From contig CBDFIQ010000002.1 of assembly GCA_965248195.1 (NCBI GenBank), forward strand, positions 2,848,001 through 2,912,000: a stretch of DNA of 64,000 nucleotides, read 5' to 3'. Positions 37,860-55,866 of this stretch are shown in pieces. The translations under genes and the position numbers were made by a program. The notes beneath the pieces are model-generated. The model saw only the letters and a program-made list of their open reading frames with translations. It was not told the DNA's origin and did no database searches. Origin of the DNA: Longimicrobiales bacterium (lineage in GTDB: Bacteria; Gemmatimonadota; Gemmatimonadetes; Longimicrobiales; Gaopeijiaceae). Within the stretch, counting starts at the first letter, position 1. Every line of letters starts with the position of its first letter.

Positions 37860-39362
37860 TCAGCCGTCCACCACGCGAAGAGCGCCGGCCATTTCGAGCA
37901 GGGACTCGACCATCCCTTCGTCACCATAGACGTCGGGCACGCCGGAGACGGGCAGCCCTACGGAACGCCCCGCATCGGCCGTCGTCGGTCCGACACCGAA
38001 GATCTGCACACCGTCGAGGTCCACCCCGGACGAGGCCAGTGACTTCGCCGCCGAAGGGCTGTACAGAAGCACTGCATCCACCCCCCTTTTAAACGCGTCC
38101 AACGCGGCGTCATTCGGCGGCTGGAGCAGCGTGTCATACACATGGAGGGTCTGGACTTCCAAACCCACCCGAGTCAACCCGTGGGAAACCTCCTCGACCG
38201 CGAGCGTCCCGCACGGGAAGAGTACCCGCTCGCCGCTCTTCGCCTCGACCCCGATCGCCTCCACGAGAGCTCTAGCTCGATACTCTCCCGGGATCAGGTC
38301 GGCACGGATCCCCGCACTTTTTAGGCCGGCCGCCGTCTTGGGACCGACCGCGGCGATCCGAGCCGCTCCGAAGAAGCGGGCGTCGAGTCCCTGACGCTCA
38401 AGCTGGCGGACGAGTCCCTCGACCCCGTGCATCGACGTGAACACCATCCAATCGTGGTCGGAGCGCGGCTCCGAGAGCTCCGCCTCGAGATATTCAATAC
38501 GGATCAGCGGTGAGTCGATCACCTCCGCTCCGAGCCCTCGAAGCTTCGAAATGACTTGCCTGCTCGCGAAGGAGGGCCGGGTCACGACCACTCGGCGGCC
38601 TGCCAGAGGCCCGAAGCCCACAGCCGGCTTATTGCCGTCGAGGCGGGCCAACCCGGCGCCCGGACCCACGATCAGCACCATCGGCGCTCGCAGACCCTCG
38701 TCGCGGACGATGCCCGCAATGGTGGCAAGGGTCCCCCGGACCTGACGCTCCCCAGGGAGCGTGCCCTCTTGCACGACCGCAGCGGGGGTCGCAACGCCCC
38801 GACCCGCGGCCATCAGGCCATCCGTCACCTCCTCCAACCGAGCGCCGCCCATGAGCACGACCGCGGTGTCCATTTTCGCCATCGCGGCGTACGGGAGATC
38901 GCGGGCCGGAAGGCCCTTTCCGACGCTCGGCGTCACTATACTCACCGTACTCGCGTGTCCGCGCAGCGTGAGCGGGATGCCGGCCCCAGTAGGTACCCCG
39001 GTCGCGCTGGTCACGCCTGGAACCACCTCACAGGGGATACCAGCCAGATAGCAGGCCTCGATCTCCTCCCACCCCCGGCCATAGATAAAGGGATCGCCGC
39101 CCTTCAGGCGGACCACCTCCTTACCGGCCCTGGCCCGCTCGATCAGGACCTCGTGGATCCGGTCCTGAGCCACCGTGTGCTGACCGGGCGCTTTGAAGAC
39201 ATCGATCAGCTCGGCGCCGGGCCTCGTGAGGGTCAAGAGCTCGGCACCGGCGAGCCGATCAAAAACGACCACATCGGCCCGCCCGAGAAGCTCCTGGCCG
39301 CGAACCGTGATGAGCCCCGCATCTCCGGGCCCCGCACCGACCAGCCACACCCGACCAGTCAA
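37860..39362 (-). CDS. cobA: Uroporphyrinogen-III C-methyltransferase / uroporphyrinogen-III synthase fusion (CobA-HemD)
   Basis: LVGAGPGD, RLKGGDPFIYGRG, VPGVTS; C-terminal VVVTRP, VFTS, AVGPKTA, YSPSA; TTG start overlaps the upstream stop. Confidence 0.88.
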   Translation of the reverse strand: MTGRVWLVGAGPGDAGLITVRGQELLGRADVVVFDRLAGAELLTLTRPGAELIDVFKAPGQHTVAQDRIHEVLIERARAGKEVVRLKGGDPFIYGRGWEEIEACYLAGIPCEVVPGVTSATGVPTGAGIPLTLRGHASTVSIVTPSVGKGLPARDLPYAAMAKMDTAVVLMGGARLEEVTDGLMAAGRGVATPAAVVQEGTLPGERQVRGTLATIAGIVRDEGLRAPMVLIVGPGAGLARLDGNKPAVGFGPLAGRRVVVTRPSFASRQVISKLRGLGAEVIDSPLIRIEYLEAELSEPRSDHDWMVFTSMHGVEGLVRQLERQGLDARFFGAARIAAVGPKTAAGLKSAGIRADLIPGEYRARALVEAIGVEAKSGERVLFPCGTLAVEEVSHGLTRVGLEVQTLHVYDTLLQPPNDAALDAFKRGVDAVLLYSPSAAKSLASSGVDLDGVQIFGVGPTTADAGRSVGLPVSGVPDVYGDEGMVESLLEMAGALRVVDG

Positions 39363-40120
39363 GGTACCGAGAGCGTGCCCGAATCGATCGCTTCGAGGGT
39401 GAGCGAGGCCAACTCCGGCCACTCCAATATCGGCGGAAGGATCTTCAGGGTCTGCGGAAGGACCTTGAGGCTCGCCAGCGCGCGGCCGAGCCTTGAGAAC
39501 GTTCGGTGTGCGGTCAGGGCTTTGGCAAGATCGACCAGCACATGTCGTCCGCCTCCAAGGAGCAATGGAACGGCCACGACCGGGCGATCGCCGAGTGAGC
39601 CGGCAACGTCCGAAAGGTATGGAGATTCATCGAGAAAGGCGGTGAGAATCTCCGTACACGGAAAGGTGAGCGCCAGTTCGTCCCGAACCCACCGAGCCGC
39701 ATCCCCGCTCGAACGGACTCGCGTGGTACCATGCCCCACGAGCAGGACGACTGGATTCAGTCCCCGGCGGGTCATGTCCGTCACCGCCTCGCCCACCTTG
39801 GTCGCCAAAACGCGGGGAAATGCTGGAAGTGTGCCGATCGGAGGGGCAATCACGAAAGAACGCGACGGATCCCCCTTCGCCCATTCCTCCGGCAGGCGCC
39901 GTCGTGCGTAGTACCCACCGCTCGCCATGATCGGCACCACCACGGGGTCCTCTCCCCGAGAGCTCCGGGCTGCATCCTCAAAGCTCGGTGTGCCCTTCCA
40001 AAAGGCACACCCGAAGCGAACCCCGGGCCGGGCCTCGCGCAGGGCGTCCGCGAGTTCCAGGAGCGCCCGGTTGGCCGCCGAGCCATCGCCCGCGCCGTGC
40101 GCCGCGAGAATCACGCTCAT
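39359..40120 (-). CDS. CbiX/SirB sirohydrochlorin chelatase
   Basis: Duplicated AAHG and VGHGT motifs, VVPIM, AVPLLLGGGRH; siroheme gene context. Confidence 0.75.
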   Translation of the reverse strand: MSVILAAHGAGDGSAANRALLELADALREARPGVRFGCAFWKGTPSFEDAARSSRGEDPVVVPIMASGGYYARRRLPEEWAKGDPSRSFVIAPPIGTLPAFPRVLATKVGEAVTDMTRRGLNPVVLLVGHGTTRVRSSGDAARWVRDELALTFPCTEILTAFLDESPYLSDVAGSLGDRPVVAVPLLLGGGRHVLVDLAKALTAHRTFSRLGRALASLKVLPQTLKILPPILEWPELASLTLEAIDSGTLSVP

Positions 40121-40126
40121 GGTGTG

Positions 40127-40447
40127 GAGGCCCGTTGAAGGAGTACAGTGGGCCGCGTTGCGGATGCCACGGTCCTAGCTCCTAGGCGGAGCGACGACAC
40201 CATAGCCGTAGCTATGGCTAGGAGCTCCAACAACGGGGGCACCGCACGAAGCGTGGTCGGGGCCGTGCCACCGCAACCCTTCAACGTGTAAGGTCATGTC
40301 ATTCATGTCCGTGGGCACAGGGCGGTTGTGCGATTGATCCTGCGTCTCTCCTCCTCGCCGTAGCGTTGCTACGCCTCGTCGTCGTTCCTTGTCTGAACGC
40401 GCACAAGCGCCCTGTGCGCGACCCGCTGTACTCCTTCAACGGGCCTC
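40127..40447. mobile_element. 321-bp MITE-like element
   Basis: Perfect 22-bp TIR GAGGCCCGTTGAAGGAGTACAG at 40127-40148 and 40426-40447; internal hairpins; no convincing ORF; no clear TSD. Confidence 0.65.
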
Positions 40448-40457
40448 TACGCTACGA

Positions 40458-41093
40458 CTACCCGGCCGCCGAGCGAGCTCCGCTCACGAGCTCTTCGAGA
40501 GTCCATTCCCCCTCGCCGACCACCCTCATATGGAGCGTCAGCGGCCCCCGCTCGTGACCGACTCTTTCAAACTCGATCGGAACCCGGCCATAGAGGTCTG
40601 CCAAAACGTTTTCGAGTTCAGGGGTGACCTCTTCGAAGGCGGCCTCCGTCGCCGGTACGGCAAGACGATCCGTAAAACGAAAGACCATCTCATGCGTCGC
40701 AAACCGCACGGGGTTGTCCCCGGCGGTATCCTGCTCGAGTGCGGCAGCGGCCTCGAGCACGCTCACGATCGCCTCCCGTAAACGCTCGGCCAGAGTCCCC
40801 GACCCCTCCCTCTTCAATTCGTACTCGAGCCCGATACGGCCACCCGCTTCGTCCGTGCGGAGGTGCCACTCATGAGCGATCAGAAGCACTCCGGGCCCCT
40901 CCGGGACATGCGTGTAATCGTGGACGTCGACGAGCGTCCCCGGGAGACGGTCCTCCTGAATCCAACGGTGAAACACCTCGATCACCCGAGCCCGGTCGAA
41001 AGCCTCCTGGTCCTCGACGAAGACCTTCACCCCCAACCTTTGGGGCTCTGAAAGGACCCGAGCGCCCACCTCTGGCGCCGCCTGAGCGCTCAT
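40458..41093 (-). CDS. Hypothetical protein coupled to sulfite reductase
   Basis: ATGA overlap with the sir stop; VFHRWIQ..LVDVHDYTHVPEGPGVLLIAHE. Confidence 0.7.
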   Translation of the reverse strand: MSAQAAPEVGARVLSEPQRLGVKVFVEDQEAFDRARVIEVFHRWIQEDRLPGTLVDVHDYTHVPEGPGVLLIAHEWHLRTDEAGGRIGLEYELKREGSGTLAERLREAIVSVLEAAAALEQDTAGDNPVRFATHEMVFRFTDRLAVPATEAAFEEVTPELENVLADLYGRVPIEFERVGHERGPLTLHMRVVGEGEWTLEELVSGARSAAG

Positions 41094-43375
41094 ACCGATA
41101 CCGTCTCGGCGGTCCGAACGTGGTACGAGTGGGCGGCCTCGATAAAGAGTTGGGCCTCTTCAATTCGCTGGCGAGCCCGCTCAGGCGTCGCGTCGAACCC
41201 ATTGCTGCCCTCGCCGTGCACGCGGAACAAATAGTTTCCGAACTTTCCTCCCGCGTAGGGATCGTGGAACAGGCCTGGGTCATAGAGATGGGTCTTGAAG
41301 GCGGCAACCACGTCGTCGGGATCTTCGCCGAGCCCCACCTCTTTCTCGCGCACCAGAGTTCTCGCCGCGATCAGCATCGCACGGTAGGCGATATCGGCTG
41401 CGCCCGTGGAATCCCCTTGATCCAGCCGATCCTGAGCGTCGAAGACCTCGCGCTCGCTGGCCTGAAGGCCGAACTCGACCGGCGAGACGATCTGGCCGGC
41501 ACACTCACCGATGCCCATGTCGCCCAGTGTGAACTCTCGCGGATCCCCCCAATTCGAGTAGAAGCTGCGGTCCTCCTCGTAGGTGGGCACTTCGACCAGA
41601 TCCTCTAGAAGGGTCCTGAGGCTGGGCTTACCCACACGGGTGACGAAGGCCTTGAAGCTCTCATCCCCCTCGCGCTCATCAACGTAATACTGGGTGATCC
41701 TGTCCGTGGCGGCCGGGATGTTCCGCCCCGGCACGGCGACAATGGCCAGACCATACGCTCCGGCGTTCTCGGCCCATTGGCCGCCCAGCACGATCTGGAA
41801 GTGCGGCACGTTGTATCCGTTGCGCTTTCGGCTCACGCCCCAGAAACCGATGTCCGCCATATGATGCTGCCCGCAACTGTTGAAGCACCCGCTGATCTTG
41901 ATGCGCAACCCCCGCACCACTTCATCCAACTCCCCGTTGCGCTCCTCCAAGTGCTCCATGAGCGTACGCGCCAGACCACGCGAGGATGCGATGCCGAGCT
42001 TGCACGTGTCCGTCCCGGGGCAAGCCGTGATGTCCGTGAGCGTCTCCGCCCGCGCCTCTGCGAGACCGAGCTCGTCCAGGGCGTCGTGTAGAGCGGCGAG
42101 GTCGCTCTCCCGCACCCAGCGAAAAGCCATGTTTTGCTCGACGGTCATTCGGACCGCGTCGCCGGTAAAACGCCTCGCCACGTCCGCGAGGCCCCGCATC
42201 TGATCGGCCGTGATATCACCGAGAGGCAGGTAGACCATGACCACCTTGTAACCCGGCTGCCTCTGCGGGGCCACGTTGGAAGCCAGCCACGCCGCCAACT
42301 GTGGACTCGGCGTGAGCTTGTTCGGCTCCTCGATTTGCCAGAGCGGCCCATCATGACCCTCGTGGACACCTGGAAGGAAGGCGGTCCACCGGGGATCTTC
42401 GGACAGCCCCGCGCGGTCCTCCAGGACGAGGCGCCGGAACTCCTCGATGCCGAGCTTCGCGACGAGGAACTTCAAGCGGGCGCGGGACCGAACATCTTTT
42501 TCCCCCAGACGAGCGAACACTCGAGAGATCGACTGACAGATCGGAAGCAGCTCCTCTTCGGGCAGAAACTCGTCGAACAGCTCCGCCTGGTGAGGAACGG
42601 CCCCCAGGCCTCCGCCGACATAGAACTCGAATCCACGCCGCTCTACCCCAGCCACCTCCCGAACTCGGGCGATTCCACCGAAGTCGTGCATCTTGACGAG
42701 TCCGCAGGGACGGTCGCCACATCCGGAAAAAGCGGGCTTCACCTTTCTTCCGAACTCCTGAGTATCCGGGTGTCCGAGAAGGAAATCGCTGACGGCGGTG
42801 GCGTAGGGGGTGACATCGAACGTCTGTGTCGTGCAGACTCCCGAGAGGTGGCAAGCGGTAACGTTTCTTACGACGTTGCCGCACGCCTCAAGGGTCGTGA
42901 TCCCCACAGCGCCCAGCCGCCGCATCAGATCCGGGGTTTCTTCGAGGTGCACGAAGTGCAACTGGATGTCTTGCCGCGTCGTTACGTGTAGGATCGCGTC
43001 CGCATACTCCTCGGAGACCTCCGCCAGCGCGTCCATCTGATCGGCACTGACCGAACCGAACGGATTCTTGATACGCACCATGCCCGGCGCATCCCACTGC
43101 GTACCCGGGCCCTTGGTGAGCTCGGCGTTCGGGAAGACCAGTTCCCTCGAGTTAAACCCATCGTGGCGCTGGCCGTTGTCGTACCGCTGGCCGTAAACGC
43201 CCCGGCGTAGGCGCATCTCCGCGAAGACCTCATCAGTCAGTTTTCCCTCGCGCTTCTGCTCTATCTGTCCCTCGAAGGCATCGATCTCACGCGAAAGCTT
43301 GTCGCCGACAAGCGATCCGAGCCTTCCCTTCCACTGCCGTGGCTCCGAGGTCTCAAGCTTACCGTTCGTAGTCAT
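41090..43375 (-). CDS. sir: Siroheme/4Fe-4S nitrite/sulfite reductase, probably assimilatory sulfite reductase, with C-terminal extension
   Basis: TTRQDIQLH, ACGNVVRN, CPGTDTC and SGCFNSCG siroheme/FeS ligands; Cys-rich leaders upstream favour sulfite as substrate. Confidence 0.85.
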   Translation of the reverse strand: MTTNGKLETSEPRQWKGRLGSLVGDKLSREIDAFEGQIEQKREGKLTDEVFAEMRLRRGVYGQRYDNGQRHDGFNSRELVFPNAELTKGPGTQWDAPGMVRIKNPFGSVSADQMDALAEVSEEYADAILHVTTRQDIQLHFVHLEETPDLMRRLGAVGITTLEACGNVVRNVTACHLSGVCTTQTFDVTPYATAVSDFLLGHPDTQEFGRKVKPAFSGCGDRPCGLVKMHDFGGIARVREVAGVERRGFEFYVGGGLGAVPHQAELFDEFLPEEELLPICQSISRVFARLGEKDVRSRARLKFLVAKLGIEEFRRLVLEDRAGLSEDPRWTAFLPGVHEGHDGPLWQIEEPNKLTPSPQLAAWLASNVAPQRQPGYKVVMVYLPLGDITADQMRGLADVARRFTGDAVRMTVEQNMAFRWVRESDLAALHDALDELGLAEARAETLTDITACPGTDTCKLGIASSRGLARTLMEHLEERNGELDEVVRGLRIKISGCFNSCGQHHMADIGFWGVSRKRNGYNVPHFQIVLGGQWAENAGAYGLAIVAVPGRNIPAATDRITQYYVDEREGDESFKAFVTRVGKPSLRTLLEDLVEVPTYEEDRSFYSNWGDPREFTLGDMGIGECAGQIVSPVEFGLQASEREVFDAQDRLDQGDSTGAADIAYRAMLIAARTLVREKEVGLGEDPDDVVAAFKTHLYDPGLFHDPYAGGKFGNYLFRVHGEGSNGFDATPERARQRIEEAQLFIEAAHSYHVRTAETVSV

Positions 43376-43470
43376 CGGGTTCCCTTTTCCACTCCCATTC
43401 TATTCAAGCATCCAAGTAGCTGGCGCTCCGCTATCGGTTTCAGCATGCTGTTTTCCATAGATTGTGACCC

Positions 43471-43502
43471 AAAAAAAGCCGCGACCCTCGAGGGGCCGCG
43501 GC
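43471..43502 (-). terminator. Intrinsic attenuator terminator downstream of the poly-Cys leader
   Basis: GCCGCGGCCC-CUCGA-GGGUCGCGGC followed by U7. Confidence 0.85.
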
Positions 43503-43526
43503 GTCCGCCTGAGTCTTCGCTTCTCG

Positions 43527-43610
43527 TCAACGACTCGTCGGAACGCGCCCCTCTCTAGGCGTGACCAGGCAACAACAACAGCAACAACACATGGCCGTCA
43601 GTGGAGTCAT
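43527..43610 (-). CDS. Poly-cysteine leader peptide MTPLTAMCCCCCCCLVTPREGRVPTSR
   Basis: Seven consecutive TGT/TGC codons (43569-43589), followed by antiterminator/terminator, upstream of sir. Confidence 0.85.
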   Translation of the reverse strand: MTPLTAMCCCCCCCLVTPREGRVPTSR

Positions 43611-43702
43611 TTCCCAAGCCTCGAGATTTTCAGGGAACCGCACGTTTCGTATACCTCGTCCTAAGTTTGGGAATTACATACCTGAGTGCCCAAACCGCCG
43701 TG

Positions 43703-43834
43703 TCACTTCTTGTCCGGCGGTGACCTGAGGATAGCCTTCGCGACGTTCTCCGGGGTGTCCGGTATCTTCCGTTGCTGCGTATTGATGTCGTAGTCGTGCT
43801 TCGGCGGCCTGCCGGGCTTCTTCTTGTCTGTCAT
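43703..43834 (-). CDS. 43-aa basic protein in the IS end (MTDKKKPGRPPKHDYDINTQQRKIPDTPENVAKAILRSPPDKK)
   Basis: Below the ORF-track cutoff; AAGGG upstream; AT-hook-like KPGRPPK. Confidence 0.5.
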   Translation of the reverse strand: MTDKKKPGRPPKHDYDINTQQRKIPDTPENVAKAILRSPPDKK

Positions 43835-43846
43835 GTCGTGGCCCTT

Positions 43847-44806
43847 CTATACGGCGTGAATGGTGGCGAATGGTGGTTTGTCCTTCAGCTTCCTCGTCAT
43901 AGACGCCAACGACGGAAGATGCGGCGTGCCCAGAATCTCCAGCCAACACCGCCGGTCTCCGTTCCTTGCACGAATCGGGCCTGCATAAAGCGCGAGTGGT
44001 CCGTTCAAATCCGCTACGATCATGTTGACTTCATCAGGCGTCCAGCCTGGCGAAGTCAGATCGTCTAGTGGCAACACGGTTTGTGTACGAATGTATTCCG
44101 CGAGCAAGTCCTGCACGATCCATATAGTGCGACCGCCCCAGCTATTCGCGGCCTCCGACTTGGCGACAAGTTGCGATGCCATACGCGCCCACACTTGCCG
44201 CGTATTGACGCCGGGAGAGCGAACGGCCTCATTGGCTGGCGTATGCGCGAATAGTACAGCCCTCTTGAACGCCGCCTGTATATCGGTGCCCATCTGCCTA
44301 TTCCCACCGGACGTAGAGCACGTCATGACTTCCACGATGATAGGTGCCGAATCGTCCTCCAAGCCTCGCAATACATAATCAAGACGGTAATTGAACGTCC
44401 CGCCACTTCCTTTCTCTCTTAACGAGATTTCCGACCACACAGACACTGGTTCGCCCGCTTGAAAACCCGCGAGGCGAAACACCCGCTTGGCTAGTTCGTG
44501 ATGTTTGGCCGAAATTCCCTGCGGTCCGAACGCGAATAGGCGGTGAGGGCAGATGGCCCAGACCTTGCCCCGTGCGAAGCGAACCGAGCAAATGCCGCAG
44601 GGCAGCCAGCCGCCCGTCTCCGTGCCCACGGAAGACGAAAATAGATGCCCAAGCGACTCATCCGATGACCGTACTCGCGCCATATCTCGATTTCCGCCAC
44701 CATCACAAACAGACTCGGTGAACGGACATCGGGCCTTCCGGCAAGCATCCCCGTCCATGCCGGACTCTTCGAGCGGCTGTCCATACAACTCTTCCACTAC
44801 AGGCAT
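43847..44806 (-). CDS. NotI-like type II restriction endonuclease
   Basis: CPF..C, GICSV and ICPHR Cys cluster resembling the NotI Fe-Cys4 site; LDYV and IVEVMT nuclease-type residues; overlaps the MTase stop. Confidence 0.7.
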   Translation of the reverse strand: MPVVEELYGQPLEESGMDGDACRKARCPFTESVCDGGGNRDMARVRSSDESLGHLFSSSVGTETGGWLPCGICSVRFARGKVWAICPHRLFAFGPQGISAKHHELAKRVFRLAGFQAGEPVSVWSEISLREKGSGGTFNYRLDYVLRGLEDDSAPIIVEVMTCSTSGGNRQMGTDIQAAFKRAVLFAHTPANEAVRSPGVNTRQVWARMASQLVAKSEAANSWGGRTIWIVQDLLAEYIRTQTVLPLDDLTSPGWTPDEVNMIVADLNGPLALYAGPIRARNGDRRCWLEILGTPHLPSLASMTRKLKDKPPFATIHAV

Positions 44807-45831
44807 AGTGTCTCCGCGACGGCCTTCGCCATTGGTGGCGGGACCGCGTTGGCTACTTGGCGATGCTGGTCAAGGTCACGCACGGAACCCGACCTACCAC
44901 GAATGGGGCCAGTAAAGACGTACGTATCAGGAAAGCCCTGTAGGCGCGCCGCCTCTCGGGGCGTGACGTACCTATCATCGGTCGGATGGTAGGGCGCTTC
45001 CCCGCAGCGCAGCGTAGGCGCGAACGACGAACGGTCGAGGCGGCGAAACTTCGTCGTGTCCTTACGTGTGAGCTTCTTGATAATGTCCGGTGGCGCATCA
45101 GGACACTTCGATAACCATAGCCCTTCCGGCACGAAGGATATGCGCTCCCTGTCTCTCGCTGGCGTTATGTCAATGTGGTTCGGCAGTGCCGGGTTTCCAT
45201 CTCGCAGCACGGGGTCTGGCATCTTGCTCAAGGCGTCGCCTACGGTCCGCCGAACCCCGTTTCCCAACGGGAAGTCGAACTGCACATCTTCACCGGGAAG
45301 GAACACAAGAAAAACGCGCTCACGGTTCTGGGGCAGACCATAGTGCAATGCGTTCAGAGTACGAACATGCATCTTGTAGCCAAGCTCTTGAAACTCCGAC
45401 GCGAGCATATGGACGGCCCGCTGTCCATCCGGCATCATCGCTCGCAAGAAATACGGAACCTGCTCTATCATGACGGCCCTGGGGCGGAAGACATCCGTAA
45501 ATCGCACCATGTCGAAAATCAGCATCCCTCGCGGGTCACTAACTCCGTTGCGCTTCCCGATCTGGCTGAACGGCTGGCATGGGGGACCGCCATGGAGAAG
45601 CCCTAGATCGCCTTTACTCATTCCGAGAAGGTCACGCATTCTGTCAGCATCAACCAACCGGACATCGACGTTCCAAACCGTCTTCTTGCGAGCGTTACGC
45701 CTGAGTGTGGTGGCGCAATGCGGATCAAAATCGATGGAGCAAACCGTTTTGAACCCAGCCTGATCCACACCAATGTCCATGCCGCCCGCCCCCGCGAATA
45801 AGCTCACTGCGCTTCCGCGATTCCGCATCAC
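44797..45831 (-). CDS. DNA cytosine-5 methyltransferase
   Basis: FAGAGG, GPPCQPFS, EQV (ENV variant), QNRERVF, REAARLQGFP, ANAVPP. Confidence 0.92.
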   Translation of the reverse strand: MMRNRGSAVSLFAGAGGMDIGVDQAGFKTVCSIDFDPHCATTLRRNARKKTVWNVDVRLVDADRMRDLLGMSKGDLGLLHGGPPCQPFSQIGKRNGVSDPRGMLIFDMVRFTDVFRPRAVMIEQVPYFLRAMMPDGQRAVHMLASEFQELGYKMHVRTLNALHYGLPQNRERVFLVFLPGEDVQFDFPLGNGVRRTVGDALSKMPDPVLRDGNPALPNHIDITPARDRERISFVPEGLWLSKCPDAPPDIIKKLTRKDTTKFRRLDRSSFAPTLRCGEAPYHPTDDRYVTPREAARLQGFPDTYVFTGPIRGRSGSVRDLDQHRQVANAVPPPMAKAVAETLCL

Positions 45832-46799
45832 GCGACCAGTTCCCGGTAGCGGAGCCGTCCGCCGACCAGCCCACGCGCCACCGCGCCCATCTGGTCCAGC
45901 GTGTCTAGCGGTCGGTCGTTGAAGCGTCCGGCGAACTCCGCGACATAACGGTCCAGATGCTTCGGGCTCATGTGGTGATAGGTGCCGTAGTAGCCGCGCT
46001 TGAGGAGCGCCCAGAACGATTCCACGCCGTTCGTGTGGGCTTGGCCGTTCACGTACTCCCTGACGCTGTGGCGTACCGTAGCGTGCTCGTAGTCGCGGGA
46101 GAGCCCACCGTAGCCGCCATGGTCGTCCGTGTAGACGGTGGACCCGGCCTCGGCGTGGTCGGCAACGAACCCCGTCAGCGTCTCACCGTCTACACGATCC
46201 ACCACGCGAGCGGCTACCTGCTTCGTCTCGCGATTCTTCGCGCCAGCCACGGCGGTCTTGCCAACCGGCCCACGGCCAGCCCGTAGCTTCTTGCTCCCGT
46301 GCTTGTTCCGCTCCTTGCCGCCTATGTACGTCTCATCGACCTCGACGGGACCGGAGAACGGGGCCGGGGCGGTGCGCCACGTCTGGCGGATCCGGTGCGC
46401 CAGATGCCAAGCGGTCTTCTGCGTCACACCCAGATCACGGTGCAGCTTCATGCTGCTGGCTCCCTTAATGCCGGTCGTGAGGATGTAGATCGCGACGGCC
46501 CACACCTGATAGCCGAGCTTCGTGTCTTCCATCGCCGTGCCGACCCGTACGCTAAACCGCTTGCGGCACGACCGGCAACGGTAGGGCATCGTCGGGTGCT
46601 TCGCGCCCATTTGCACGTTATCCGACGCGCAATGCGGGCAGACCGGAGAGCCGCCCCAGCGCTGTTCTGCGAACCACCCTTCGGCAGCTTCGTCGCTCGG
46701 GAATATCCGCATCAACTCCACCCATGACAGCCCTTCGCGCTCCGCCCGTCCGGGGCCGCCGTTGTACTTGCTGTTGCCGCTCATCTCTATGCTCCGCAA
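45828..46799 (-). CDS. IS1595-family (ISXO2-like DDE) transposase (start may be the ATG at 46784)
   Basis: Zn ribbon CPHC..CRSC, VEVDETYIGG, VYTDD, HTNGVESFW. Confidence 0.93.
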   Translation of the reverse strand: MRSIEMSGNSKYNGGPGRAEREGLSWVELMRIFPSDEAAEGWFAEQRWGGSPVCPHCASDNVQMGAKHPTMPYRCRSCRKRFSVRVGTAMEDTKLGYQVWAVAIYILTTGIKGASSMKLHRDLGVTQKTAWHLAHRIRQTWRTAPAPFSGPVEVDETYIGGKERNKHGSKKLRAGRGPVGKTAVAGAKNRETKQVAARVVDRVDGETLTGFVADHAEAGSTVYTDDHGGYGGLSRDYEHATVRHSVREYVNGQAHTNGVESFWALLKRGYYGTYHHMSPKHLDRYVAEFAGRFNDRPLDTLDQMGAVARGLVGGRLRYRELVA

Positions 46800-46921
46800 T
46801 GTGTTATCCTATATTGGTAATATAGTACCCATCACGGAGGGTCGCAAGGGGTTTGGGTACTCAGGTATGTAATCCCCCTAAGTTTCGGGTCTTTCCATTC
46901 CCGGTCTCACCCGGTTCGAAC

Positions 46922-46951
46922 AAAAAAGGCCCTCGGGAAAACCCGGCGGCC
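46922..46951 (-). terminator. Second intrinsic terminator after the upstream Cys leader
   Basis: GGCC-GC-CGGG-UUUU-CCCG-AG-GGCC followed by U6. Confidence 0.7.
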
Positions 46952-46975
46952 TCTTGAACTGGAATCCAAACCCAC

Positions 46976-47003
46976 AAAAAAGCCACCGAATGTCTCCGGT
47001 GGC
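46976..47003 (-). terminator. Intrinsic attenuator terminator after the upstream Cys leader
   Basis: GCCACCGGA-GACA-UUCGGUGGC followed by U6. Confidence 0.8.
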
Positions 47004-47031: not shown

Positions 47032-47127
47032 CTATACGACGTCTCCCCGATACCCCACCGGGCTCGGACAAGAACATCGGCAACAACAACTCTCGAGCAT
47101 CATGACCCGCATCCTTTTACAACACAT
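47032..47127 (-). CDS. Cys-rich leader peptide (MCCKRMRV)MMLESCCCRCSCPSPVGYRGDVV; start at 47127, 47112 or 47103
   Basis: Five Cys in seven codons (47068-47088), followed by antiterminator/terminator. Confidence 0.75.
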   Translation of the reverse strand: MCCKRMRVMMLESCCCRCSCPSPVGYRGDVV

Positions 47128-47157: not shown

Positions 47158-47185
47158 ACGCTAACCGCCCGAAGTCCCCTGTCAA
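47158..47185 (-). promoter_or_regulatory. Sigma70-type promoter for the Cys leader
   Basis: TTGACA-N16-TAGCGT. Confidence 0.55.
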
Positions 47186-55694: not shown

Positions 55695-55866
55695 ATGCGG
55701 GCGCGCAGGTCTACTGACTTAGGGCGGCACTCCCTCGCCTTCCCAGGGCCTGTCGGCTCCAGTGGCATTCATGAGGGGGCCTGTCCGGCGCAAAAACGCG
55801 CCGAGCCCAACACAGTGGCGGGGCCGTGCCGGATTGTCACCGGCTTCCGAGATGCCTCGCCCGCAT
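55695..55866 (-). ncRNA. Cobalamin riboswitch
   Basis: GGAAGCCGGUGACAAUCCGGCACGGCCCCGCCACUGU, GCCACUGG..GGGAAGGC, AGUCAGUAGACCUGC; closing helix AUGCGGGCG/CGCCCGCAU. Confidence 0.92.

Follow-up and report, generated by a model that had tools for sequence, protein, structure and literature searches.

The mechanism of classical leader-peptide attenuation is summarised in the available text of 10.1101/834739. E. coli trpL, Salmonella hisL, thrL, leuL and pheL each have a short open reading frame (ORF) with a run of cognate codons; their antiterminator strand lies in the second half of that ORF, an intrinsic terminator follows ~50 nt past the stop codon, and a biosynthetic operon lies downstream. 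The Longimicrobiales locus described here is built in the same way. Unlike these systems, it is predicted to sense cysteine, it precedes sulfur-reduction and siroheme genes, and it has two serial leaders and three terminators.

Cysteine is an amino acid without demonstrated textbook terminator-type attenuation; the available text of PMC8632094 offers one predicted case, before cysS. The accessible part of 10.1101/834739 states that no attenuation by an upstream ORF (uORF) had been described for cysteine before 2020, and the one found there is translational. The predicted case is uORFC-8-2 of the Rhodobacterales, a Cys uORF with an intrinsic terminator (Brewer et al. 2021, PMC8632094), and our locus resembles it in its Cys uORF, its terminator and its read-through on Cys-tRNA shortage, all of them predicted. 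As its published text describes it, uORFC-8-2 has two Cys codons at positions 14-15 and belongs to cysS only, in Alphaproteobacteria (PMC8632094); by that description, the leaders presented here differ in their 3-9 Cys codons, their cysH/sir operons, their occurrence in Gemmatimonadota and their covarying antiterminator. A comparison with one supplement gave no match for the uORFC-8-2 motif.

Polycysteine leaderless sORFs of mycobacteria, the 'Cys ribulon', act translationally where tested (Canestrari et al. 2020, 10.1101/834739); mycobacterial poly-Cys ORFs were first predicted in PMC1262725, and the case is cited in PMC13236596 and PMC13613805. According to the available text of 10.1101/834739, the Cys ribulon shares with our locus a poly-Cys ORF before cysteine-metabolism operons and the ribosome as sensor, yet its ORFs are leaderless and have no intrinsic terminator, and its tested case hides the Shine-Dalgarno sequence of the next gene, whereas the unit here is leadered and terminator-based. 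The unit falls outside the Cys ribulon of mycobacteria. Tandem arrangements are also on record: the tandem attenuators mgtM and mgtP of Salmonella mgtCBR sense ATP and proline (Lee and Groisman 2012, PMC3641672), and the rimP-leader has a second tandem terminator (PMC2965389). As far as the accessible parts of these papers go, our locus resembles both in having two attenuating units, or two terminators, per leader, and differs from mgtCBR in that both units are predicted to sense cysteine and that its first two terminators are predicted to be linked by a relay helix.

Our literature search, in which subscription journals were thinly covered, found no terminator-type Cys attenuator for sulfur-assimilation operons and nothing on attenuation in Gemmatimonadota. 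The original prediction, made from the sequence of this locus alone, had treated such attenuation as not known to be described in this kind of organism; that part holds for Gemmatimonadota, for which we found none, whereas the available text of PMC8632094 had already predicted a terminator-type Cys attenuator, uORFC-8-2. Rfam leader families gave no match to the Cys leaders, and a search of positions 43300-43900 returned nothing meaningful (best E 0.16, to unrelated sRNAs). No T-box or SAM riboswitch was matched at the Rfam gathering score in the leaders of the window (by which we mean the whole stretch of 64,000 nucleotides that was analysed) or of L032, L037, L176 and L195.

The unit is real and conserved, and it very probably acts as a cysteine-sensing transcription attenuator. 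Its features, and those of the surrounding locus, are collected in Table 1.

Table 1. Features of the reductase operon and its upstream region, in positions of the window
Feature	Position	Strand	Basis or remark
Native promoter, predicted, TTGACA-16 nt-TAGCGT	47158..47185	minus	hexamers invariant in 9/9 aligned sequences, spacer variable
Leader peptide 1, MRVMMLESCCCRCSCPSPVGYRGDVV, with CCCRCSC	47032..47112	minus	sequence; in-frame conservation
Terminator T1, 9-bp hairpin + U6	46976..47003	minus	sequence; conserved
Terminator T2, hairpin with internal mismatch + U6	46922..46955	minus	sequence; predicted relay with T1
IS1595-family element, 3209 bp	43669..46877	minus	Pfam; ends and duplication read from sequence
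IS1595 transposase	46799-45828	minus	Pfam
IS1595 cargo, C5 methyltransferase	45831-44797	minus	Pfam
IS1595 cargo, 319-aa ORF, no family, likely restriction endonuclease	44806-43847	minus	
Leader peptide 2 ORF, 27 aa	ATG 43610 to TGA 43527	minus	reads MTPLTAMCCCCCCCLVTPREGRVPTSR
Antiterminator of leader 2, predicted	43490..43553	minus	nascent-RNA minimum-energy fold; covariation in related units
Terminator T3, 10-bp hairpin + U7	43471..43502	minus	sequence; covariation in 12-sequence alignment
Short ORF, 24 codons, stop overlapping reductase start (ATGA)	43372..43446	minus	possible translational coupler
Siroheme reductase, NIR/SIR family, 761 aa, probably sulfite reductase	41090..43375	minus	PF01077, PF03460
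211-aa ORF, no family	41093-40458	minus	no Pfam/NCBIfam match
CbiX/SirB-type chelatase	40120-39359	minus	siroheme supply
CobA-HemD fusion	39422-37860	minus	siroheme supply

The core of the locus is leader 2, whose Cys codons lie at 43589-43569 and read TGT TGT TGC TGT TGT TGT TGC on the minus strand. A GAGG motif stands 8 nt 5' of its ATG, and its reading frame is preserved in relatives. Two further in-frame starts exist, GTG 43643, which would give 38 aa, and ATG 43592; the GTG is in frame in all five relatives that have the leader 2 unit. Intact copies occur in L030, L032, L034, L037 and L203 with 4-8 Cys codons each, a number that varies through whole-codon indels, and the distance from the last Cys codon to the stop is 14 codons in all of them. 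The C-terminal TVTPREGRVPTSR is kept across the genus, and this conserved tail is the antiterminator strand. Leader 2 is truncated in L035 and absent from L031, L033 and L036. The 27-aa peptide has no Pfam match, which is uninformative at this length. Across the 4.86-Mb genome we counted 27 short ATG-initiated ORFs with at least 3 consecutive Cys codons, and both of the two that have a terminator within 90 nt precede the reductase operon.

The T3 hairpin (43502-43478) has 9 G-C pairs among its 10 bp and a 5-nt loop, and is followed by U7 at 43477-43471. From the end of T3 it is 95 nt to the reductase ATG (43375) and 25 nt to a short ORF that is perhaps a means of translational coupling. Across 12 aligned sequences, the window's among them, 97.7% of the T3 cells are paired and 4/11 pairs show two-sided change. 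A set of three antiterminator helices, mutually exclusive with T3, can be drawn: GAGGGGC 43553-43547 with GCCCCUC 43496-43490 (core GAGGGG 43553-43548 with CCCCUC 43495-43490), GCGUUCCG 43546-43539 with CGGACGC 43507-43501, and GAGUC 43536-43532 with GACUC 43515-43511. The GAGGGG core begins 15 nt past the last Cys codon. We modelled a ribosome stalled on the last Cys codon of a nascent RNA that includes the first 3 nt of the T3 3' arm and stops there. This RNA has the antiterminator as its minimum-energy fold (-36.7 kcal/mol), and the T3 5' arm is bound upstream with P=0.70 in the stalled state versus 0.39 with the ribosome at the stop codon. The fold has a z of -3.4; when the freed coding part is shuffled, 0.4% of 500 sequences fold as stably.

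In nine related units, a mutually related set that excludes the unit of the window, 90.7% of the antiterminator cells are paired and 13 cells carry two-sided changes, values that 0/500 shuffles reach for both; 5/12 pairs show two-sided change, a count reached by 40/500 shuffles. A consensus fold of six close sequences has two-sided change in 0/24 antiterminator pairs. The coding-part shuffle test gives p<=0.05 for 21 of 38 non-redundant leaders and for none of 15 controls, which were ordinary gene ends with a terminator at a similar distance (Mann-Whitney p 6e-6). Other tests discriminate less. The plain duplex test gives p 0.077 for the leader 2 unit and is passed by 13/38 leaders; shuffles of the T3-type 5'-arm probability alone do not separate leaders from controls (7/38 vs 3/15); and ranking cognate against non-cognate duplexes places the cognate first in 5/38, a weak result because many terminators have GCCCCG arms in common.

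What the original prediction observed is confirmed, and its interpretation is supported. On re-reading the sequence we found its seven-Cys ORF (43610-43527, minus), its 10-bp hairpin with U7 about 95 nt before the reductase, and its GAGGGG/CCCCUC, GCGUUCCG/CGGACGC and GAGUC/GACUC pairings, each where it had been placed. Folding of both conformers, which had been proposed as a check, gave the predicted antiterminator the lowest energy in the nascent RNA with a stalled ribosome, with T3 favoured at full length, and the covarying stems that were to be looked for in relatives are present in the antiterminator (nine units) and the terminator (12 sequences), with the 0/24 in the six close sequences set beside them. 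A TGY run out of frame in homologs had been named as evidence against the idea; the run is in frame in 5/5 relatives that have the whole unit. The one start codon given has two in-frame competitors.

The full-length stalled leader 2 RNA at equilibrium still forms T3 (P=0.79), and among the 38 leaders the median terminator P at full-length equilibrium is 0.97, falling by 0.2 in 5/38 only. Since T3 wins at full-length equilibrium, the switch must be kinetic and co-transcriptional. Classical attenuators have the same kinetic requirement. The naked 161-nt region folds no more stably than its shuffles (z -0.96); in that fold the ORF start AUGACUC pairs with the GAGUCGU arm and T3 is retained, an arrangement that in the model would give termination when the leader is untranslated.

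To place leader 2 within a wider family, we examined 40 regions around cysH-type matches in Longimicrobiales, those of the 150 matches listed (94 more lay beyond the list) that were new to our set of loci. In 32 of the 40, a single detector recognised a Cys mini-ORF followed by a terminator, so that the search for Cys-codon runs upstream of sir/cys genes in relatives, also proposed with the original prediction, turned up units in most regions examined. Among the eight that the detector missed, L170 and L185 do have a Cys ORF, four seemingly lack the 5' end of the operon, and L187 and L192 have none. At cysD-type loci, where the flanks were shorter and not size-matched, the combination was found in 0/30. 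The detector has 15 other matches in the whole 4.86-Mb genome, a background of ~3 per Mb or ~0.02 per 7.6 kb. The genomes with leaders are kin, and these counts are thus not independent trials. Among 77 loci, similar units lie 5' of the reductase operon in other Gemmatimonadota (L039, L070, L091, L098, L104) and, outside Gemmatimonadota, in Entotheonella (L050, L061), in Acidobacteriota (L079, L096) and in L064. A GTDB-wide scan for the leader 2 pattern returned 28 stretches, 6 of them in Gemmatimonadota records, all true units; 20 of the other 22 were chance-like, and two were unrelated-looking Cys leaders before cysteine synthase. L112:2950-3110 and L122:2980-3110 (+) have a Cys leader and a terminator before cysteine-synthase-like genes; one is a Bacteroidales record and the other, labelled archaeon, may be mis-binned.

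From 60 leaders we obtained the 38 non-redundant ones by dropping L104 (no terminator called), L186 and L064 (too little sequence past the last Cys codon) and 19 redundant copies. Their peptides vary widely, while the distance from stop codon to U tract is 48-64 nt in 34/38 (median 54). Cysteine makes up 17% of leader codons versus 0.7% in long ORFs, and 61% of the Cys codons are TGT (128/211) versus 32% in the long ORFs of the genome studied here, the wobble-read codon being favoured. Methionine, at 5.8% of leader codons versus 2.0% in long ORFs, suggests that some leaders may respond to methionine as well as cysteine. Cys richness and RNA spacing are the only features conserved across the order. 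In other lineages, two Cys(/Met) leaders stand in series in L175:1307-1760 and L195 (7017-6600, minus), and in L191, L200 and L201 two such leaders lie ahead of different genes.

The leader 2 unit is not alone: an inserted IS1595-family element separates it from a second Cys leader with two terminators (47112-46922), and the original prediction had missed both this upstream part and the element. The element, which additionally encodes a 43-aa ORF, has 27-bp inverted ends and an 8-bp target duplication (46885-46878 and 43668-43661). It is the single full copy in the genome and is absent from 8/8 same-genus loci; the IS-free joint 43660-46904 occurs in a contig of run X13, and near-identical IS cargo is found on contigs of runs X5, X9 and X13. 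Contigs of X1 that cross the IS junctions reach 30 and 29 bases outside, under the 31-base threshold, and X1 may be the source sample; they are not independent support for the junctions.

The same-genus loci, none of which has the element, share one order (8/8): promoter, leader 1, T1, T2, leader 2 with T3 where kept, cysH and reductase. L203 shows this complete arrangement as well; in L171, leader 1 is present together with T1 and T2. Genome G245 has two whole copies of the leader-cysH cassette, L203 and L204, 26 kb apart; they are nearly identical to those of the window's genus, yet G245 belongs to another genus, whose member L171 is divergent, which suggests possible transfer. A promoter-like pattern similar to the native one precedes 22/38 non-redundant Cys leaders.

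Leader 1 starts 45 nt past the -10 hexamer; its conserved start is likely ATG 47103/47100. Leader 2 lies far downstream. The CCCRCSC motif is in frame in 8/8 same-genus loci and in L203, and the leader 1 pattern occurs in 10/314 family genomes (reversed control, 0). Leader 1 carries an antiterminator core, CCGGUGG, complementary to the T1 5' arm; in 10/10 sequences the model has leader 1 binding this arm with P=0.87 when the ribosome is stalled at Cys1-3 versus 0.04-0.25 when it is at the stop codon.

The T2 5' arm can in turn form a duplex with the 3' arm of T1 and the U tract that follows, of 12-14 bp in 9/10 sequences and 8 bp in L036. Of the cells of the T2 5' arm, 97/99 pair with the T1 3' arm versus 84/99 with its own 3' arm, and its position 5 is unpaired in its own hairpin in 9/11 sequences and paired in the relay in 11/11. 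All four of its substitutions are transitions and G-U-compatible with the relay. In modelled nascent RNA, P(relay) is 0.99-1.0 when the antiterminator is kept, and P(T2) is 0.95-1.0 when T1 is formed, each in 10/10 sequences; in full-length RNA the relay prevails (P>0.5) in only 5/10. The pairing of the T1 3' arm with the T2 5' arm is likely to be a relay. Relay complementarity would come for free, however, were T2 a duplicate of T1. T2 sits directly before cysH in four genomes without a whole leader 2, and so it must be passable. Outside Gemmatimonadota records, L064:3732-3900 (+) has a Cys leader and two near-identical terminators with relay complementarity of -18.9 kcal/mol. The tandem and relay layout is the most distinctive feature of the locus.

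The reductase is the first gene of the operon here; cysH precedes it in most relatives. It reaches no NCBIfam model's cut-off, scoring best against NirA PRK09567, and its closest homologues, 86-93% identical, are in Longimicrobiales (Gemmatimonadota). That its substrate is sulfite rests on context, since cysH adjoins it directly upstream in 7/8 same-genus loci. The downstream operon genes (37860..41093, minus) have the same order in L032; the 211-aa ORF, which overlaps the reductase stop and is retained in L032, is a possible partner of the reductase. A short ORF with an ATGA overlap is present in the window and in 9/11 other loci examined, and absent from L033 and L171; the version in relatives (L030-L032, L034-L037, L203, L204) has 10 codons (MLKLKSEGSR type), and its stop overlaps the cysH start. 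The genome (91.8% complete) gave no PF01507 (cysH) match, so that its sulfite would need a different origin; it does have a fused ATP sulfurylase/APS kinase and cysteine-synthase-family genes. The gene cysH was deleted twice, with different ends, at L030:3900-4000 and at 43372-43470 in the window, and in L030 the first cysH codons now form one reading frame with the reductase. The loss of cysH with attenuators and reductase kept hints at sulfite from organic sources. Elsewhere in the window (55709-55848, minus) there is a cobalamin riboswitch (RF00174, 58.7 bits).

The strongest rival explanation, though an improbable one, draws on exactly these losses: the unit would be a real attenuator in relatives but vestigial or bypassed here, the element having cut off the promoter of a pathway in decay. 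The 3.2 kb that lie between the native promoter and leader 2, the missing cysH (lost in L030 as well, and without a PF01507 match in this 91.8% complete genome) and the loss or breakage of leader 2 in 4/8 same-genus loci all speak for it. Set against them are the intact ORF, three antiterminator helices, T3 and four downstream genes, and the existence of cysteine-synthase-family genes in the genome. A promoter-like sequence within the element (TTGCGA-17-TATATT, 46847-46819) also faces leader 2, and no minus-strand terminator-like site was seen between the two; one such promoter-like site was found versus 1.4 expected, that is, no excess over chance. Given the 3.2-kb insertion and this promoter-like site, leader 2 is probably the sole cysteine gate on transcripts started within the element.

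It is highly unlikely that the ORF encodes a small, functional Cys-rich peptide, for metal binding, as a sulfur store or as a modified peptide, behind which the hairpin merely ends the transcript. Seven consecutive thiols and the TVTPREGRVPTSR kept in the genus would suit such a peptide, but the Cys count ranges from 4 to 8, order-wide only Cys richness and spacing are kept, and the tail that is conserved doubles as the antiterminator strand. The stretch from T3 to the first gene showed no promoter, so that the operon would be left without a transcript under this explanation.

We give very little credence to control that is translational or exerted by Rho, as in mycobacterial poly-Cys ORFs, with an incidental hairpin: the sole tested poly-Cys system does hide a Shine-Dalgarno site, as the available text of 10.1101/834739 describes, and T3 is favoured at model equilibrium, yet T3 ends 95 nt from the reductase start with no start site within the hairpin, and a covarying hairpin with its U tract is maintained at fixed spacing. 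There are known arrest peptides that respond to small molecules, and thiols are reactive, but it is scarcely credible that the nascent poly-Cys peptide (through oxidation, metal or sulfide in the exit tunnel) rather than low Cys-tRNA stalls the ribosome, since the 38 leaders have no common motif beyond Cys (often Met) content and the regulated genes are cysteine-supply genes.

A cysteine-sensing attenuator, the reading that the original prediction took from the sequence, agrees with the conservation of the locus, its gene context, its spacing and its folding. We hold it to be quite probable that the leader 2 unit is a trp/his-type ribosome-stalling transcription attenuator that reads charged Cys-tRNA. 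A ribosome would trail RNA polymerase on the leader. With Cys-tRNA ample, it would reach the stop codon at 43527 and cover the GAGGGG, GCGUUCCG and GAGUC arms, T3 would form and transcription would end; with Cys-tRNA scarce, a stall within 43589-43569 would leave these arms free to pair with the T3 5' arm and loop before polymerase has transcribed the 3' arm, and transcription would run on into the reductase and siroheme genes. In the ancestral, IS-free layout, polymerase would pass leader 1 first, where a stalled ribosome would leave CCGGUGG free to sequester the T1 5' arm. That would release the T1 3' arm to pair in turn with the T2 5' arm, and a single stall would thereby disarm T1 and T2 alike. 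Polymerase leaking through a formed T1 would meet a formed T2, and the serial pair of cysteine checks would cut leak and steepen the response.

A His leader, MNTSIRHHRHHHHHPLPERLAGAVPLS, with a terminator lies before hisG in the same genome, outside the window (G000:C2:2832569-2832720, +), which shows that the organism uses this logic. It follows a promoter-like TTGACC-17/18-TAACGT, and its ATG, only 6 nt past the TAACGT hexamer, may make it leaderless; it scores only p 0.10 in the shuffle test. Candidates for Trp, Ile and Met leaders from the genome scan turned out to be gene ends or repeats, and only the His leader stood.

The wider significance lies in a large, covarying family of Cys leaders before the sulfur-assimilation operons of an almost uncultured phylum. 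Its parts are short and need only a ribosome and RNA polymerase, so that tests in laboratory hosts are feasible. With two leaders in tandem and a predicted relay, the locus offers a natural test of how attenuators limit leak and make a response steeper; should the three-terminator cascade prove true, it would be a leak-proof, steep cysteine gate that could be transferred into a reporter. The independent leader losses and the IS insertion, for their part, show how such leaders get rebuilt. We would extend about as much belief as doubt to the broadest reading, that Longimicrobiales may run the whole sulfur-assimilation switch on terminator-based Cys attenuators and that this lineage may have built from them a relay cascade of three terminators as a leak-proof, steep gate.
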